A stretch of 64,000 nt of DNA from positions 1,728,001 through 1,792,000 of the forward strand of contig CAXXDV010000001.1 of the NCBI GenBank assembly GCA_963674745.2, in the 5' to 3' direction. The translations under genes and the position numbers were made by a program. Each line of letters starts with the position of its first letter. Within the stretch, counting starts at the first letter, position 1. This DNA comes from Desulfosudaceae bacterium (GTDB lineage Bacteria; Desulfobacterota; Desulfobacteria; Desulfobacterales; Desulfosudaceae). Of this stretch, positions 4,064 through 14,858 are shown one piece after another. The notes under the pieces are model-generated. The model searched no databases, was not told the origin of the DNA, and saw only the letters and a program-made list of their open reading frames with translations.

Positions 4064-4476
4064 GTTGACAAATTATACAAACCATCCTCTCAAGTACTCC
4101 TTCCAAAATGGATAAATGTTGGAGAAAATAATTAGAACAGGTAAATAGGAAATAAAACGATGCCAAGAGGAGCATGACTGGATGCGCCGGGCACATTGCA
4201 TCATGTCATGGTGCGTCGGATCGAGAGGCGCAAAATTATCGACGATAGAGCTCGTTTTATCTCAAGGGCCGGGGAAATTGCACTGTACACCGACAATTCG
4301 GAAGCCGCCGGCACCCGATGCCGGATTTAAGAAAAAGGCTTGCCTGGGAGTTTGTTGGGGACTATGACGTTTCGCTTGCACAGGCCGCTCGCTATCTGGG
4401 CCTGTCAACTTCCGGAGTCGCCCAGATATTGAGGAGAAATAAACATTAGTTTGTATGTTTTGTTAACAACGTTTCC
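4064..4476 (+). pseudogene. internally deleted Y1/HUH (RAYT/IS200-like) transposase remnant with imperfect terminal inverted repeats
   Basis: From ATG at 4160 reads MPRGA*LDAPGTLHHVMVRRIERRKIIDD (typical N-terminus, with a stop). The 3' piece reads LRKRLAWEFVGDYDVSLAQAARYLGLSTSGVAQILRRNKH* (HTH-like). IRs: GTTGACAAATTATACAAAC (4064-4082) and GTTTGTATGTTTTGTTAAC (4449-4467), 16/19 match. Confidence 0.7.
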
Positions 4477-8686: not shown

Positions 8687-8845
8687 CGACCATTTTTTGC
8701 CGTAACTGGCTGTTTTTCGGTGGCAAATCGACAAAAAACTCAATACAAAACGATATGGTTATTTTATAGAGAATCCATAGGTCACAAAATTTGATTCTCT
8801 TCACACCTCTTTAAGCTCTGCCTAACAGGGCTATTAATAATAAAA

Positions 8846-9079
8846 AACCGGAATTAAAGAGTCGGTCTGTATAACATCCCAAATCGGCACAAAACACAGA
8901 CCGGTTGAACAATGCTCACTGTGTCAAGTGACGTTACATTTCTTATAATGGTTTGATAACAAAAGATATCGTTGATTTCTTCGAAATGATGTGATTTTAT
9001 TTAATAACAACTTTAAATCTTCACTAAATCAGAAAACGGGACAAAAGGCAGACCGACTACATAATTACTAATGTTAGGT
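8846..9079 (+). repeat. long attC-like site (or attI) heading the cassette array
   Basis: AAC at 8846; perfect IR AGTCGGTCTG (8860-8869)/CAGACCGACT (9049-9058); GTTAGGT core at 9073. Confidence 0.5.
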
Positions 9080-9397: not shown

Positions 9398-9522
9398 ACC
9401 TAACAACGCCACTCACACAGACTCGCAGGGGCGGCCTGCCTTAGTCTTGGCATAGTGTGGTGTTGAAATAACATTTAGCGAAGTCCGCAAACCCTGCTCG
9501 CCGGTGGTGGCGGACGTTAGGT
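9398..9522 (+). repeat. attC site 1
   Basis: ACCTAAC-AACGCCACTCAC...GCAGGG...CCCTGC...GTGGTGGCGGAC-GTTAGGT. Confidence 0.9.
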
Positions 9523-9528
9523 TCCAGA

Positions 9529-9849
9529 ATGGAAGAATCGGAAAAATTTTTTGCGAGAATCATCTTTGGATGGACATGGCGTAGGTTTCTCACCTTATGC
9601 TTTACCATTAGCGCTATAGCTATATTGGTTTTCGCTACGTTTTCCCTTTTACCATCCGAATCTCATAAAACGACAAGTTGGAAAGAGATTCTTTTGCTTT
9701 CGCTACTCTTGGGGCCATTGGTGACAACCACCATTTTTCTATATTTTCGTTTCATCAAAGGCCCAATTTTATTATCGAGGCTGCAATCGAAAGGCAAAAC
9801 TGATACTATCGAGTTTTGTAATGAATTAATCAATAAAAACGGAACCTAA
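9529..9849 (+). CDS. cassette 2 hypothetical two-TM membrane protein
   Basis: 106 aa; stop codon lies within the attC R'' box. Confidence 0.75.
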   Translation: MEESEKFFARIIFGWTWRRFLTLCFTISAIAILVFATFSLLPSESHKTTSWKEILLLSLLLGPLVTTTIFLYFRFIKGPILLSRLQSKGKTDTIEFCNELINKNGT

Positions 9850-9966
9850 CAACACCATGCACTTGACTCGCAGGGGCGGGCTGCTTTTCAATTATCGAGG
9901 TTCGGTGTTAACGTGGCTTTGCAAAAGTCACCTTTCCCTGCTCCCAAGTGACGGTGGACGTTATGT
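9844..9966 (+). repeat. attC site 2
   Basis: ACCTAAC-AACACCATGCACTTG...GCAGGG...CCCTGC...CAAGTGACGGTGGAC-GTTATGT. Confidence 0.9.
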
Positions 9967-9981
9967 GTATGAAAGGTTCGA

Positions 9982-10335
9982 ATGGATATAATCTTTGAAG
10001 CGAAAAAAGTATCCTATAATGAAGCCTTAGGTGGAGATATTGTCCAGATTTCATTTGACCAAGATGATCATGATGACATCCTTGAAAATCCGTATAAATA
10101 CCTTCTTATCTCTATCAATTATGAATTCCCTCCATTTGAGCCATCATTTGAGTGGTATGACGGCACTGAGTATGATGGCGGTGATGAAATCAAAAATTAT
10201 TCTTTTCAGCCTGATCATTTAATGATGCAATTGGAAAACGATTTGGTTTTTGATATTTCTTTTAAAATCGAAAAACCTCTTTTCGAAAAAATAGATCAAT
10301 TTTTTAAAAAGGTATTTAAAAGATTAAACACATAA
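9982..10335 (+). CDS. cassette 3 hypothetical acidic protein
   Basis: 117 aa, AAGG RBS, stop within the attC R'' box. Confidence 0.75.
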   Translation: MDIIFEAKKVSYNEALGGDIVQISFDQDDHDDILENPYKYLLISINYEFPPFEPSFEWYDGTEYDGGDEIKNYSFQPDHLMMQLENDLVFDISFKIEKPLFEKIDQFFKKVFKRLNT

Positions 10336-10390
10336 CGAACAAGGATAGATCGTGCGAGGTAACGAGCCACGATCTTATCCGGGGTTGAAC
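10330..10390 (+). repeat. attC site 3 (short 61 bp type)
   Basis: ACATAAC...GGATAGATCGTG/CACGATCTTATCC stem with one unpaired base...GTTGAAC. Confidence 0.75.
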
Positions 10391-10584
10391 AAGCCCGCTG
10401 AACTTTCACTATAAGAAAATATTTAATTTGGGATAGAGGGCAAAAGGCGTGAACCTGGAAAGTGCTTTTTTTGCAGGGCGCAGGGATCCCTTAACCTGAA
10501 GGCAGGTTTTAAAAAGACAATTTTGTTCATGGGTGTGATTGCCTCCTGTTTTTTGTTGTGCCGGGTCATAACCGGGGCAGCGTT

Positions 10585-11640
10585 TTATCCCGGCTTCCAG
10601 GCCGCGTAACGGAACCCTTTGATGACCATCGGGATGTGGCAACGGGGGCACTTTACAGCAGGTCTCGGGCGTTGGATCTTTATTCCTAGCCGGACATGCA
10701 GGATCAATTGCACCAGTTGCAACGTCTTTTTGGCGTTGCCGTGGAGGAACCCGTAATCACGTACCCTGCGGAAGCCCTTGGGCAGGACATGCTGCAGAAT
10801 AAGCTGGAGAAAATTTTCTCCGTCAAGCGTGCGATAACGGGTATGGCCGGTGTTGCTTTCCGTGTATCGGAAGGTGACCCGGCCATTTTCATTGGCCACG
10901 ATGTTCTTTTCACTGATGACGCCCCGGTATAAGTACCGGGACAGGTACTTTATGGCCGGGAGCCCGTTACCGACCTTTTCACAATCCACGACCCATTTTG
11001 CAGGTGTATTTTTAGGCACATAAAGGCCGGCTTTTCTTAAAGCGGCCAGAAAACGGGCACGAAAGACCGTGGCCAGGTTAAACTCATTAAACAGATATTT
11101 TCCTTTTTTCTTTTTCCATTGTCGCCGGCGCTTATCAATCCCGCCGCCGGGCACCACCACATGGATATGAGGATGATAATCCAGACTTCGGGTGTTCGTA
11201 TGCAGAACCATGGTCAAACCGATTTCTGCGCCCATTTGCTTCGGGTTTAAGCCAAAATCCTTGAGTGTTTCGGACACACAGGAAAAGAAGATTGAATATA
11301 CATCCCGCTGATTGTTCCAGGCCAGCGGACGGAGTTCAAACGGCAGCGTAAACGTCGCCATAAAGTAAAGCACCGGAAGCAGTTTCTCCTGCTGCCGGTC
11401 GATCCACTGACTGGCCTCATGATTCTGGCATTTGGGGCAGCTCCGGTGCCCGCAGGACATTGGTTTCCATTGTCCATGTTGGCAGCCGGGGCACTGAACG
11501 TAAAATTCTCCGGAGGCAGGAGTGCGGCACCTGCGTATGGCACGCAAGGCTTTAAGATGCCCCGGCAAGGCTTTTTGGCCGTGCTTTTCCATAAACCTGT
11601 CAGCGTACTGATCAATAATTGATGCCAGTTCCATAATCAT
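10585..11640 (-). CDS. IS91-family rolling-circle (HUH, Y2) transposase with N-terminal zinc-binding domain
   Basis: CRT...CPGC...[11 protein letters not shown] zinc motif; HPHIH (HUH); YLSRYLYR (YxxxY); [18 protein letters not shown]. Confidence 0.92.
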
Positions 11641-12541
11641 ACCTTTCTAAAATCAACATGGATTGTATTTATCAACTCATTTAAGACAGTCAGGCTGTCC
11701 TGCTCCGTTATATCGCTTAGATGCGTATAACGTGCTGTTGTGGAGGGACTGGCATGGCCAAGCAGGGCCTGGATGTGACGGAGGCTTAAGCCGCGTTCAA
11801 GCAGGTGGGTGGCAAAACTGTGACGCAGGGAGTGAATGGATACTTTTTTTTAATGCCGCATTCGGCGACGACCACTTTCATGGCTCTCTGACAGCCGCCT
11901 TTATCCATAAAGTTGGTGGCCGCCCGGATGGTTTCTAAAGAACCCTTGCAATTGGGGAATAACAAATTAGGATGACGATGCTTACGCCAAAGCTCCCGCA
12001 GGCCCTCCAACGTAAGATCCGGCAATGGCAGCATTCGGTCCTTATGACCTTTACCCCGGCGGATATGGACCTTTTTGCGTTCAGCATCAATGTCCCCGAT
12101 CTGAAGGGACAACGTCTCTTCCAGACGCAATCCCATGGAATAGGTTGTCAGCAGAAATACCCGGTAACGCAATTTCTTGGTTTTGCCGATGATCCGTTCA
12201 ACTTCGGAAACGGTAAGAATGTCCGGTATGGTTTTGACTTTCGGCGGTTTGACGATCTTGATCCATTCCCAGTCCTTTCCGAGCACATACCGCCAGAAGA
12301 ACTGCAAGCCGTTACGGTCAACCCTGACCGTGCTCCAGGAATGGCTATCCACCAGCTGAGAGAAATAACCTTCCAACTGTTCCGGACGCAAATGGTCGGG
12401 ACAACAATCAAAATGGTTACGAATGCGGCGGACTGAACGGGCATAGAGATCAATGGTCCTCGGACTCATCCCCTGAAGCTTGAGCAACTCCAGGTGCCGC
12501 TCATAAAGCCGGTTGAAACGTTTTACTTCCGAATCGTTCAT
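11637..12541 (-). CDS. tyrosine recombinase/integrase, split by a -1 frameshift at an A8 run
   Basis: 0-frame: SAM-like N-terminus, [18 protein letters not shown]. After ATT AAA AAA AAG (T-run 11844-11851) the -1 frame reads [43 protein letters not shown]...DFRKV*, and its TGA overlaps the transposase ATG (ATGA). Confidence 0.88.
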
Positions 12542-12628
12542 GGTATACTCCTTTTATTGGGGGTGCCCGTAATTGAGCACGTATTGGAGTATACCTTGTT
12601 TTTTATTAATCCGCCGCGTAGCGGCTTC

Positions 12629-12752
12629 GTTCAACAACGCCACTCACACTGACTCGCAGGGGCGGGCTGCTTTTTAATTATCGAAGTTCGGGGTTAACGT
12701 GGCTTTGCAAAAGTTACCATTCCCTGCTCGCCGGTGGTGGCGGACGTTATGT
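12629..12752 (+). repeat. attC site 4
   Basis: GTTCAAC-AACGCCACTCAC...GCAGGG...CCCTGC...GTGGTGGCGGAC-GTTATGT. Confidence 0.9.
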
Positions 12753-12776
12753 TTCGAAAAATATTAGGAGGTCCAC

Positions 12777-13061
12777 ATGGGATCAGATGATATTCAAGAA
12801 CAGCGTATTAATGGAGCAAAAGGAATTATTTCAAGTGCCAATATCTTAGCAATTGACGCTGGAATTGAGATTAATGACTCCATTTGGAATAAACGTCAGG
12901 GGATTGACAATCGAGAGTTACATACACTCGAACTTGTTAGAGATGGAAAAACAGTAAGTGGTGAATTCGACGTGGAGGAATTGGAAGACTATCCGGGTAA
13001 AGTTGGAACCGAAAAGACAGATTCCAAATTACGAACAATGATCCGTGAATTAAGCAAGTAA
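12777..13061 (+). CDS. cassette hypothetical protein
   Basis: 94 aa with strong AGGAGG RBS. Confidence 0.75.
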   Translation: MGSDDIQEQRINGAKGIISSANILAIDAGIEINDSIWNKRQGIDNRELHTLELVRDGKTVSGEFDVEELEDYPGKVGTEKTDSKLRTMIRELSK

Positions 13062-13125: not shown

Positions 13126-13249
13126 ACATAACAACGCCACTCACACGGACTCGCAGGGGCGAGCTGCTTTTGTTTTGGCGTAATTTGGAGTTGAACTCAC
13201 TTTAGCGAAGTCCGCAAACCCTGCTCGCCGGTGGTGGCAGACGTTCGGA
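13126..13249 (+). repeat. attC site 5
   Basis: ACATAAC-AACGCCACTCAC...TTTAGCGAAGTCCGCAAACCCTGCTCGCCGGTGGTGGCAGAC-GTTCGGA; close relative of attC1. Confidence 0.9.
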
Positions 13250-13254
13250 CCAAT

Positions 13255-13818
13255 ATGAATCTTACTCCAGCAGACGATCTTAAAAATTTACTTAGCGAGC
13301 CGCAATATTGGATAAATAAAGCTGAAGCCCTTCGTGCGTCTGCTGGTGCAATATGGTATTGTCAACATTCCGTTCAGCATACTGATATCAATCAGGCGCT
13401 TGGCACCGATCCTCCAATTCAAATTAGCGGAGATATTTGGCAAGTTTATAGAATGTTATGTGGCATGTCTTTAGAGCTTGCCTATAAGGCCAGCCTTATC
13501 GCATTAGGCAAAGATATAAAAACAACACACAATCTAGTTTGGCTTGCTGAACAAGTTTGCTTTTCTTTAACCCAAAAAGAACACGGGTTACTCGCATTAC
13601 TATCAGAGTGTGTTATTTGGCAAGGCCGATATCCTGCTCCCAAAGATGATTTATCATTGGAATATTTTGTATATCTCCATTATGAAAATTTGTTTCGTAA
13701 GGTCACCACTGGTAATCTTACAGTCCTAAAGCCCTTAGAACCAGACCCTTTAGATTGGGAAGGTTATAATGAGCTATGGAAATCAGCAATTGCAGCATAT
13801 GAATGGCATAAATCCTAA
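13255..13818 (+). CDS. cassette-encoded HEPN-like domain protein
   Basis: Start at ATG 13255 (the tracked GTG lies inside the attC); LCGMSLELAYKA...THNLVWLA...GRYP pattern resembles HEPN. Confidence 0.6.
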   Translation: MNLTPADDLKNLLSEPQYWINKAEALRASAGAIWYCQHSVQHTDINQALGTDPPIQISGDIWQVYRMLCGMSLELAYKASLIALGKDIKTTHNLVWLAEQVCFSLTQKEHGLLALLSECVIWQGRYPAPKDDLSLEYFVYLHYENLFRKVTTGNLTVLKPLEPDPLDWEGYNELWKSAIAAYEWHKS

Positions 13819-13936
13819 CCAGAAAGCGCAAAGGACAGCCAGGGCAGGCTTTGTTGTTCAACCCTGGTAATTTGAAAGTTTAAACTATAATCAAGTCAGG
13901 TGTGGCCCTGGCTGTACTTGGCTTCAGAAGTTCTAC
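13813..13936 (+). repeat. attC site 6 (divergent)
   Basis: TCCTAAC...ACAGCCAGGGC/GCCCTGGCTGT perfect IR...GTTCTAC; 124 bp like the other long sites. Confidence 0.7.
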
Positions 13937-14063
13937 AATAAAAAAAAGGGGGGGGGTGTGATGCCCCACCGAAAGTTCTGGTTGCCGAGAAAACATAGTA
14001 GTCATAATGTATAGAAGAATAATCCATCCAGATAGAACGATAAAAATTCAAGAGCATTTCAAA

Positions 14064-14858
14064 ATGCCTACTGTCTACCTCGACCATTGGGCGTTAAACG
14101 ATATTGCCCTTAATGAAGAGTTGCGAAAAAAGTTTATTCAAGTCATGAATGAAAACGGTGGGACTTTTCGCCTTTCCGTCGTTAATATGACCGAATTGTC
14201 GAAACAAGCTGACAGATCTCAAATTGATTCAATTCTTGATATGATCAATAGCATTTTTGACTGTGGCCTCATAAATATAGATCCTAGTGAAGTAATAAAG
14301 AAAGAAAACATCTTAATAGATGATCTTGATTCAATTGCCCATGTCATGAACCCTTCTGCAGAGTTAGATTTTGTTTCAACATATCTCATGGCCCATAACT
14401 ATCCAACACATTGGCATGTTTCGGAGATAATCAAAACGGTTATCGGGGAACTACCATCAAAACGCCTTACTAAAAGCAATGAAAAATTTTTGGAAGACAT
14501 GCAGAATCTTCTTAAAATTGGCCGAAATGATTTAAGTAGTTTGAATAGGGCAAAGTCTAGGTTTCATAGACTAAAAAAAAGTGGCCCTAAGTATCAAACA
14601 GCAACAAGAGAACTCTTACAAATGGCAGTTGGTTTTGTGATGCGAAACCAGAATATGAAAATGACTCAGTACAGTGAGTGGGACGATCTTTTTCATCTAA
14701 TCGTTCCGGTATCATATTGTGATATTGTTCTGCTAGATAGACGGTGGAAAACATTTATAAATCAAACTGGGTTTTCGTTTCCTGATATTGCGATGGTATT
14801 CGATAAACGAACAATCGCTGATTGCTTTAAAACCATTTCAGAATGGAACCTAAGCTAA
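14064..14858 (+). CDS. hypothetical protein, possible PIN-like nuclease fold
   Basis: N-terminal VYLD, middle E, C-terminal DDLFH...YCDIVLLD acidic pattern; start may instead be 14007. Confidence 0.5.
   Translation: MPTVYLDHWALNDIALNEELRKKFIQVMNENGGTFRLSVVNMTELSKQADRSQIDSILDMINSIFDCGLINIDPSEVIKKENILIDDLDSIAHVMNPSAELDFVSTYLMAHNYPTHWHVSEIIKTVIGELPSKRLTKSNEKFLEDMQNLLKIGRNDLSSLNRAKSRFHRLKKSGPKYQTATRELLQMAVGFVMRNQNMKMTQYSEWDDLFHLIVPVSYCDIVLLDRRWKTFINQTGFSFPDIAMVFDKRTIADCFKTISEWNLS

Follow-up and report, generated by a model that had tools for sequence, protein, structure and literature searches.

A stretch of 64,000 nucleotides from the genome of a Desulfosudaceae bacterium (contig CAXXDV010000001.1, positions 1,728,001 to 1,792,000; hereafter the window) contains a 2,299-bp mobile element inserted in the recombination site (attC) of an integron cassette. 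To judge from its two genes, the element is an insertion sequence of the IS91 family and belongs to the subgroup in which a tyrosine-recombinase gene lies upstream of tnpA, the gene for a Y2-HUH transposase. The crossover falls directly after AAC in the R'' box of the attC rather than at R' (G|TT), and the element has the opposite orientation to the cassettes. We propose that the HUH enzyme makes a single-stranded circle, that the ends of this circle mimic an attC, and that the recombinase of the element itself carries out a single-strand exchange, at AA/C, between the circle and a resident attC. We give this whole chain a probability of about 0.55.

Insertion at the R'' box of attC

The extent of the element follows from a blastn search of positions 10200-12900 against the whole genome, which returned three further copies with 98.7, 97.2, and 96.4% identity. 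When aligned, the four copies have exactly 10337-12635 in common. Each copy is preceded on its left by xxTAAC and followed on its right by what is left of an attC, a different one in each case. All 4 right flanks have at least one uninterrupted counterpart in the genome, an attC in which xxTAAC runs directly into the same bases over at least 16 positions; the empty-site paralogue of the window target lies at C1:2273597. These uninterrupted paralogous sites therefore indicate that the element was inserted without target duplication, directly after the AAC of R''. AAC is all that the element end and the target have in common, and because the element also ends in AAC, its boundary is ambiguous by 3 nt (10334-12632 fits equally well). 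When 10337-12635 is excised in silico, an attC is recovered in which R'' (ACATAAC) and R' (GTTATGT) match, and these two boxes pair in the fold of the reconstructed site. This interrupted attC (10330-10336 plus 12636-12752) belongs to the upstream cassette, which encodes 117 aa. In all four copies, tnpA and the recombinase gene are antisense to the cassette open reading frames (ORFs), as a sequence-only reading of this DNA had stated for the window.

That reading had drawn the unit as an integron cassette, occupying 10384-12635 between two sites called attC3 and attC4 and obeying the rule of complementary cassette ends. The two end boxes are indeed present (GTTGAAC at 10384-10390 and GTTCAAC at 12629-12635) and are complementary like the ends of the neighboring cassettes. 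The rule itself also stands: read by eye, the first bases of the cassette complement the R'' of its own attC at 5 of 5 neighboring junctions, and the element follows it in its own orientation, but the unit as drawn does not. Against integration of 10384-12635 together with attC4 by ordinary integron recombination stands the unit repeated in the genome, which takes in attC3 and ends before attC4, the latter being different in each copy. Moreover, it is removal of 10337-12635 that restores a matched attC with an uninterrupted paralogue, and attC4 together with 10330-10336 is the split attC of the upstream cassette. The comparison of the four copies refutes the cassette interpretation, to which we attach next to no weight.

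Beyond the element ends, no flanking sequence is shared by the three other copies. Mobilization of cassettes by read-through was rejected as a candidate, since none of these three copies carries flanking cassette sequence. The suggestion that the two genes move neighboring cassettes in place of IntI, the integron integrase, finds no support in the same comparison, and the genome has three intI genes of its own.

Relatives were collected by a transposase scan of one genome per species, which returned 101 loci; 80 loci, with 46-78% identity, were kept. Their hosts are mostly Desulfobacterota known as metagenome-assembled genomes (MAGs), together with some Gammaproteobacteria, Omnitrophota, and Spirochaetes. 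Several loci come from the same MAG, and in all counts of distinct sequences duplicates were removed by sequence identity alone. All 56 distinct right junctions have A at -3, while 54 have A at -2 and 54 have C at -1. Further upstream, 37 have T at -4, 49 have a pyrimidine (C or T) at -6, and 47 have a purine (G or A) at -7. These upstream bases fit RYYTAAC. On the other side of the target, 45 distinct left junctions continue with A (35) and A (41); beyond these, 27 have C at +5, 35 have T at +8, and 37 have A at +11. The consensus from -7 to +11 fits the left half of an attC, not a tetranucleotide. The junction tetranucleotide is TAAC in 37 and GAAC in 6 of the 56 junctions, which differs from the IS91 target, GAAC/CAAG (GTTC/CTTG).

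The targets were reconstructed and scored in a crude hairpin test that needs a GTT 36-140 nt downstream and uses 28-nt arms, with 1,500 AAC sites as controls. Of 32 reconstructed targets, 13 beat the 5th percentile of the controls (1.6 expected) and 8 beat the 1st. Because the test misses short or atypical sites (for example L055, L016, and L065), 13 of 32 is a lower bound and not a rate. Most of the 13 passing targets have their single-base bulges in the 5' arm, as is characteristic of the top strand. At 31 of 49 distinct junctions, the cassette strand has an open frame of 50 codons or more that terminates no further than 45 nt from the junction, compared with 17 of 49 in a crude opposite-strand control. 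A relative with 55% identity is located on an Escherichia coli IncC plasmid, in a clinical class 1 integron, where it lies antisense between aadA1 and qacEdelta1; its junction, GTCTAAC|AATTCGTTCAAGCC, is in the attC of aadA1. By these sequence comparisons, the relatives are shown to obey the same rule of position and orientation at the R'' of attC. The earlier idea of a self-mobilizing unit that targets attC sites was thus essentially right: all four copies are in different attCs, and the rule is shared by the relatives. Its corollary, that homologues would be found at attC sites, held for the AAC (54 to 56 of the 56 junctions) and for the 13 targets that passed the hairpin test. It did not hold for L046, a relative inserted at CCCAAC|AAG within what by eye resembles a TnpB-type ORF and not an attC, which we regard as a secondary target.

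Element termini and their predicted joint

Both termini are strongly conserved among the relatives. The oriIS-side terminus consists of a spacer (GAACAA), a 12-bp stem with one bulge (10343-10354 / 10368-10380), GGG, the GTTGAAC box, and AAGCC. The terIS-side terminus contains an inverted repeat, GGTATACTCC/GGAGTATACC (12542-12551 / 12586-12595), a small hairpin, GCCGC-GTA-GCGGC (12613-12625), GGCTTC, and the GTTCAAC box. In the direction of its own genes, the element reads GTTGAAC-GAAGCC, recombinase, tnpA, GGGCTT-GTTCAAC, three bases, the 12-bp bulged stem, and TTGTTC. Read in this orientation, it has the layout of a cassette, in which the start, TTGAAC, is complementary to the R'' (GTTCAAC) of a terminal attC-like site. 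What had been called attC3 is the element's own terminal hairpin, and the element is cassette-shaped but inverted.

The joint of the two ends is predicted to read CCTTGTTC|GTTGAAC. Once joined, the boxes and their neighbors would pair over about 12 bp around the terminal hairpin, with the terIS-side end opposite 10384-10395, and the predicted fold has raw energies, calculated without a shuffle baseline, of -20.3 kcal/mol on the tnpA-antisense strand and -19.5 kcal/mol on the other. Both ends were available at 41 loci, which gave 37 distinct joined ends. At the variable pair of the boxes, 24 of these have T-A, 7 have C-G, and 6 have mismatched C-A; five stem pairs vary on both sides in a compensatory manner. 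Given this complementarity of about 12 bp and the bulged hairpin, a circular form with joined ends would have an attC-like site following its two genes. The tnpA-antisense strand resembles the bottom strand of a real attC in that its bulge is located on the 3' arm and its joined box on the 5' arm. In the IS91 model, the strand displaced by rolling-circle transposition corresponds to this tnpA-antisense strand.

Several side observations concern the termini. The contig of relative L061 (2,453 nt) was assembled as a 2,312-bp circle via exactly the predicted joint, with a terminal overlap of 141 nt, a hint but not proof of a circular or tandem form. At three other loci (L017, ~1830-1870; L024, ~1400-1460; L047, ~4290-4320), the hairpin-side terminus is partly duplicated in tandem over the last 7-40 nt before the flank; such duplications may have been left behind by events at one attC that were aborted or took place more than once. 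In copies L065, L082, and L088, the segment from tnpA to the terminal hairpin has itself received other short insertions. In contigs of runs X1 and X2 over 10287-10460 / 10397, the terminal hairpin has 3-4 times the depth of the element body, and several of these contigs diverge from the window just past GTTGAACAAGCCC with different continuations. The pile-up points to further elements or fragments in these samples that share this type of end.

A profile search of the whole genome identified three intI genes, with 415-429 bits against the TIGR02249 cut-off of 265. For two of the element copies, a true intI gene lies at a distance of 12-14 kb and the array has the expected orientation; the remaining two, including the window copy, are in arrays without a nearby intI. 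In the window no intI was found, and the TIGR02249 matches there are the two halves of the element's own recombinase only. The array had been described as lacking intI, which is correct for the window and not for the genome. An alternative is that a host integrase inserts a circular form of the element through its attC-like joint and that the element's recombinase serves otherwise. The three genomic intI genes, the two copies in their arrays, and the joined ends, which obey the cassette rule (R'' GTTCAAC versus R' GTTGAAC), speak for such a mimic. It nevertheless fits poorly, because IntI inserts at R' (G|TT) via bottom strands and in cassette orientation, whereas all four copies and the E. 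coli relative are inverted and at R'', and the relatives have the same junction consensus. The two copies in arrays without a nearby intI and the retention of the recombinase gene throughout the element family also argue against it. We consider insertion by a host integrase improbable.

Recombinase, transposase, and the A8 run

The gene upstream of tnpA, on the same strand, encodes a tyrosine recombinase (PF13495 and PF00589). Its best NCBIfam match is the integron-integrase model TIGR02249, with 89.7 bits for the N-terminal part and 53.5 for the C-terminal part, but positions 180-258 of the model are unmatched and the archaeal XerA model scores about alike. About 31 alignment columns that are filled in two of the genome's IntI proteins, corresponding to the IntI additional domain, are gapped in the recombinase and in its in-frame relative, in agreement with the earlier impression that the IntI-specific insertion is missing. 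The nearest solved structures by sequence are XerA (4a8e, 1e-29; 5hxy, 7e-29), followed by IntI4 (2a3v, 7e-24) and XerD. The profile, alignment, and structure matches therefore point to a recombinase that is IntI/Xer-like but not IntI. It is encoded inside arrays, in a repeated 2.3-kb unit, rather than at an array head with attI and Pc.

The recombinase had been read as one ORF of about 301 aa. The zero frame, however, reads GGC ATT AAA AAA AAG TAT at the A8 run and stops after 251 aa, and the last 69 codons are in the -1 frame. The catalytic part with HxxR...H...Y is reached only in this -1 frame behind A8; it matches profile positions 127-169 of PF00589 (4e-15). One extra A in the mRNA would equal a -1 slip on A_AAA_AAG. 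The A8 run is present in all 4 genomic copies, and contigs of three public sequencing runs cross it without an indel.

The frame was determined in 59 related loci in which both recombinase halves are adjacent; 21 of the 80 loci were dropped, mostly because they were cut by contig ends. A -1 shift is needed in 50 loci, all of which have a run of 8-9 A. The recombinase is in frame in 5, all with an interrupted A run, and needs a +1 shift in 4, where the run is one base shorter; two of the latter (L028 and L030, from different MAGs) are near-identical. Selection was analyzed over the 66 codons downstream of the run, using 41 distinct sequences of the -1 type (513 pairs). The median rate was 0.146 for nonsynonymous (dN) and 1.44 for synonymous substitutions (dS), with a dN/dS of 0.10. 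Downstream of the run, none of the 41 sequences has a stop in the -1 frame, and all 41 have one in the zero frame. In a FastTree tree of transposases (48 tips, rooted on the E. coli relative and used for topology only), the -1 state spans the tnpA clade and the in-frame tips are nested at three places. The outgroup, the E. coli relative, is in frame, and its longest A run does not exceed 5.

Single-base defects in runs of A commonly arise as artefacts, and 4 of the 59 loci have a run one base shorter still, so the recombinase could be a pseudogene produced by decay or by homopolymer sequencing error. Such errors would not be expected to recur in the same state in all four genomic copies and in 50 loci from independent assemblies, or to be reproduced in the contigs of three runs, and the interruption of the run in all 5 in-frame relatives also contradicts them. 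The conservation in 50 of 59 loci, the dN/dS of 0.10, and the pattern of stops therefore argue for conserved recoding and not decay, which we regard as scarcely credible. On these counts, the -1 shift of the recombinase is programmed recoding in the clade studied here.

TnpA matches PF04986 (1.6e-47) and PF14319 (1.5e-27) and scores 387 bits against NF033538 (cut-off 125), covering profile positions 1-353 of 356. Its translation contains HPHIH and YLSRY, which we take to be the motifs of a Y2-HUH transposase. These matches confirm the earlier assignment of the ORF to an IS91-family Y2 transposase, and the Pfam domains found in the element are those of Y2_Tnp / Zn_Tnp_IS91 and phage integrase only. 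The recombinase stop overlaps the first ATG of tnpA as ATGA, as previously noted. This overlap occurs in the window element and one other locus, the layout in the family being stop-NN-ATG. The idea that translation of tnpA is gated by the shifted recombinase frame is weakened by this layout and by a Shine-Dalgarno-like sequence of its own in front of tnpA in 12 of the 12 relatives displayed.

Proposed route, surrounding array, and known systems

In the route that we favor, the HUH enzyme would peel off or copy out the tnpA-antisense strand as a single-stranded circle, and the ends of the circle would fold into an attC mimic. At AA/C, the element's recombinase would then carry out a single-strand exchange between the circle and a resident attC whose top strand is folded, and the insertion would be completed by replication. 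Since AAC is the sole identity between the partners, the data fit single-strand exchange and not a classical two-strand exchange, which needs a matching spacer. Cassette insertion by IntI, with its single-strand exchange finished by replication, parallels this route. Full-length recombinase would stay rare because its synthesis would depend on the ribosome or RNA polymerase slipping on the A run, and the main product is probably the truncated 251-aa protein, which has the SAM-like DNA-binding domain and lacks the catalytic tyrosine. Whether the system amounts to an undescribed two-enzyme pathway is a more tentative matter. In such a pathway, an IntI-like recombinase would paste an HUH-made single-stranded DNA circle at AA/C into the attC top strand that integron integrases avoid, and the supply of the enzyme would be set by programmed A8 slippage; at present we hold this stronger claim to be doubtful.

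A number of points weigh against the proposed route. The circles, the choice of strand, and the identity of the joining enzyme are steps that we infer, and insertion 3' of xAAC could also be obtained by IS91-type HUH chemistry alone. In the 80 nt downstream of the A run, no consensus structure that could stimulate frameshifting was detected (mean z-score 0.16), and a Shine-Dalgarno-like stimulator was present in only 2 of 53 sequences; as stimulatory elements were not found, the efficiency of slippage is probably low. Two RNA runs hold 0.06-0.07 of the words, and RNA run X19 has no cover of the A run. Because tnpA has its own Shine-Dalgarno-like sequence, its coupling to the shifted frame is not required. 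The box pair is mismatched in 6 of the 37 joined ends, and the end-to-end covariation could reflect a protein-binding site shared in two copies rather than base pairing. In the hairpin test 19 of the 32 reconstructed targets failed, and the coding-sequence target of L046 means that non-attC sites are also used. Finally, the cassette (top) strand carries the local leading-strand GC skew at three of the four copies, which can be read as the lagging-strand template; three of four copies are too few to mean anything.

Some of these points are what one would expect if the Y2 transposase alone cut and joined 3' of xAAC in single-stranded DNA and the recombinase guided the reaction, regulated it, or resolved by-products. 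The truncated 251-aa recombinase would then perhaps be the main accessory form, merely binding attC. Insertion by the HUH enzyme alone is consistent with AAC as the sole element-target identity without duplication, with the presence of GAAC, the IS91 target, at 6 of the 56 junctions, and with insertions outside recognizable attCs; it also agrees with the expectation that most translation should yield a recombinase without the tyrosine. However, the consensus from -7 to +11 extends well beyond a tetranucleotide, the catalytic C-terminal part of the recombinase is under strong purifying selection, and attC-built ends serve no obvious need of a pure HUH element. We judge the HUH-only scheme unlikely, though far from negligible, and retain the route in which the recombinase joins the strands.

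The features of the window are collected in Table 1. The element is surrounded by a small plus-strand cassette array of short ORFs, each followed by an attC. In the genome, one class of attC sequence forms more than 80 repeats in at least 8 clusters, alongside the three integron-integrase genes; clusters are found at C1:1480-1531 kb, C1:2106-2115 kb, C1:2267-2285 kb, C3:31-37 kb, C3:1821-1850 kb, C3:2331-2347 kb, and elsewhere. One array of about 50 kb adjoins the GC-skew minimum, the presumed origin (C1, about 1.2-1.5 Mb). Within the window, an attC-like site at 8821-9079 is unusually long (~259 nt), with R'' GCCTAAC at 8821-8827, R' GTTAGGT at 9073-9079, and arms at 8852-8869 and 9049-9066. 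The small hairpin and GTTGAAC box (8904-8910) inside it resemble the element's terminus; an attC may here have taken up a miniature relative of the element or retain a remnant of an insertion. At 13928-13950, between an attC-like site (about 13814-13936) and the next cassette ORF (14007-14858), a homopolymer run of A8 is followed by G9.

Table 1. Positions in the window of the element, its parts, and the attC sites around it.
Feature	Position	Strand	Remarks
Whole mobile element, 2,299 bp	10337..12635	-	Extent common to four genomic copies, 96.4-100% identity
tnpA, IS91-family Y2 HUH transposase, 351 aa	10585..11640	-	ATG conserved in the family is the third codon (11634-11632)
Recombinase, zero-frame ORF, 251 aa	11786..12541	-	SAM-like N-terminal domain and early catalytic domain; lacks HxxR, H, and Y
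Recombinase, C-terminal part, -1 frame	11637..11843	-	GHAS...RYTH; ends in TGA over the tnpA ATG
Slippery run, A8 then G on the minus strand	11843..11851	-	ATT AAA AAA AAG; heptamer A_AAA_AAG in phase
oriIS-side terminus (formerly attC3)	10337..10395	.	Conserved in relatives whose tnpA-downstream flank was displayed
terIS-side terminus	12542..12635	.	Conserved in 54 related loci with the int-upstream flank displayed; L051 lacks the terminal box
R'' box of the interrupted target attC, ACATAAC	10330..10336	+	Holds the stop codon of cassette ORF 9982-10335
Rest of the interrupted target attC, L''...L' and R' (formerly attC4)	12636..12752	+	R' GTTATGT at 12746-12752; homologous to uninterrupted attCs
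Uninterrupted attC	9398-9522	+	Array neighbor, homologous to the interrupted target attC
Uninterrupted attC	9844-9966	+	Array neighbor, homologous to the interrupted target attC
Uninterrupted attC	13126-13249	+	Array neighbor, homologous to the interrupted target attC

Integron arrays are the main store of mobile genes, resistance genes included. To our knowledge, only IS1111-attC elements and group IIC introns have been described as attC-homing, and the present family would be a third kind of attC-homing parasite, mechanistically distinct if the proposed route is true. The family is widespread in environmental bacteria (80 loci) and has already reached a clinical class 1 integron. As a cassette look-alike that carries a single-stranded DNA nuclease and an integrase-like recombinase, the element provides a natural test of attC hairpin and strand recognition without the IntI-specific domain. 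It also hints at what the integrase gene of some IS91 members, long unexplained, may do, and it adds a tyrosine recombinase to the genes under programmed slippage. IS91-type elements can read through their terminator end, so the element could be an IntI-free route for moving cassettes if the novel pathway is true. In annotation, copies will be called pseudogenes, "integrases" inside arrays, or extra attC sites, as the earlier reading of this DNA illustrates.

Like the IS91 family (IS91, IS801, IS1294, and the ISCR relatives), the element has a Y2-HUH transposase with a zinc-binding N-terminus, inserts beside a short fixed sequence without target duplication, and has a structured end downstream of tnpA. 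It differs from IS91 in its target, which is the R'' box of attC (RYYTAAC|AA...) instead of GAAC/CAAG anywhere, in termini that mimic attC, and in a recombinase that needs -1 recoding. The recombinase gene upstream of tnpA is shared with the integrase-carrying IS91 subgroup of ISfinder, with a phage-integrase-type ORF in this position, to which ISShvi3, ISSod25, and ISAzo26 presumably belong. ISShvi3 is mentioned in a passage of PMC9229058. Neither an attC target rule nor recoding of the recombinase in this subgroup was described in the full-text literature searched, a body that lies outside subscription journals, ISfinder, and TnPedia.

The recoding signal resembles that of programmed -1 frameshifting or transcriptional slippage in the IS3 and IS1 families, in which A_AAA_AAG is likewise in phase within A8-A9 and the upstream frame yields a truncated DNA-binding product, the -1 shift giving the full enzyme. 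Here, in contrast, the recoded gene is the tyrosine recombinase of an IS91-type element and not a DDE transposase, and a stimulatory structure was not found at the A run.

Homing to attC has parallels in two other groups. Tetu and Holmes reportedly described the IS1111-attC group in 2008 as attC-specific insertion sequences. Like this group, which belongs to the IS110 family, the present element inserts in a specific orientation at one fixed position inside the attCs of integron arrays; the enzymes (a DEDD transposase there, HUH and tyrosine recombinase here) and the position in attC are different. Group IIC-attC introns also home to attC, antisense to the cassette genes and near the inverse-core end, but they are retroelements with a ribozyme and a reverse transcriptase, whereas the present element is a DNA transposon. 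Passages of PMC9229058 state that IS1111 elements invade attC and that group IIC-attC introns insert opposite to cassettes.

The recombinase differs from IntI in having no additional domain, in scoring far below the model cut-off, and in its position outside an attI or Pc context. Like integron cassettes, the element has a TTGAAC start followed by genes and an attC-like site with GTTCAAC as its first box, and the identity at the crossover is limited to AAC/GTT. Unlike them, it is autonomous, with a recombinase and a transposase of its own, and is inserted at R'' in inverted orientation.

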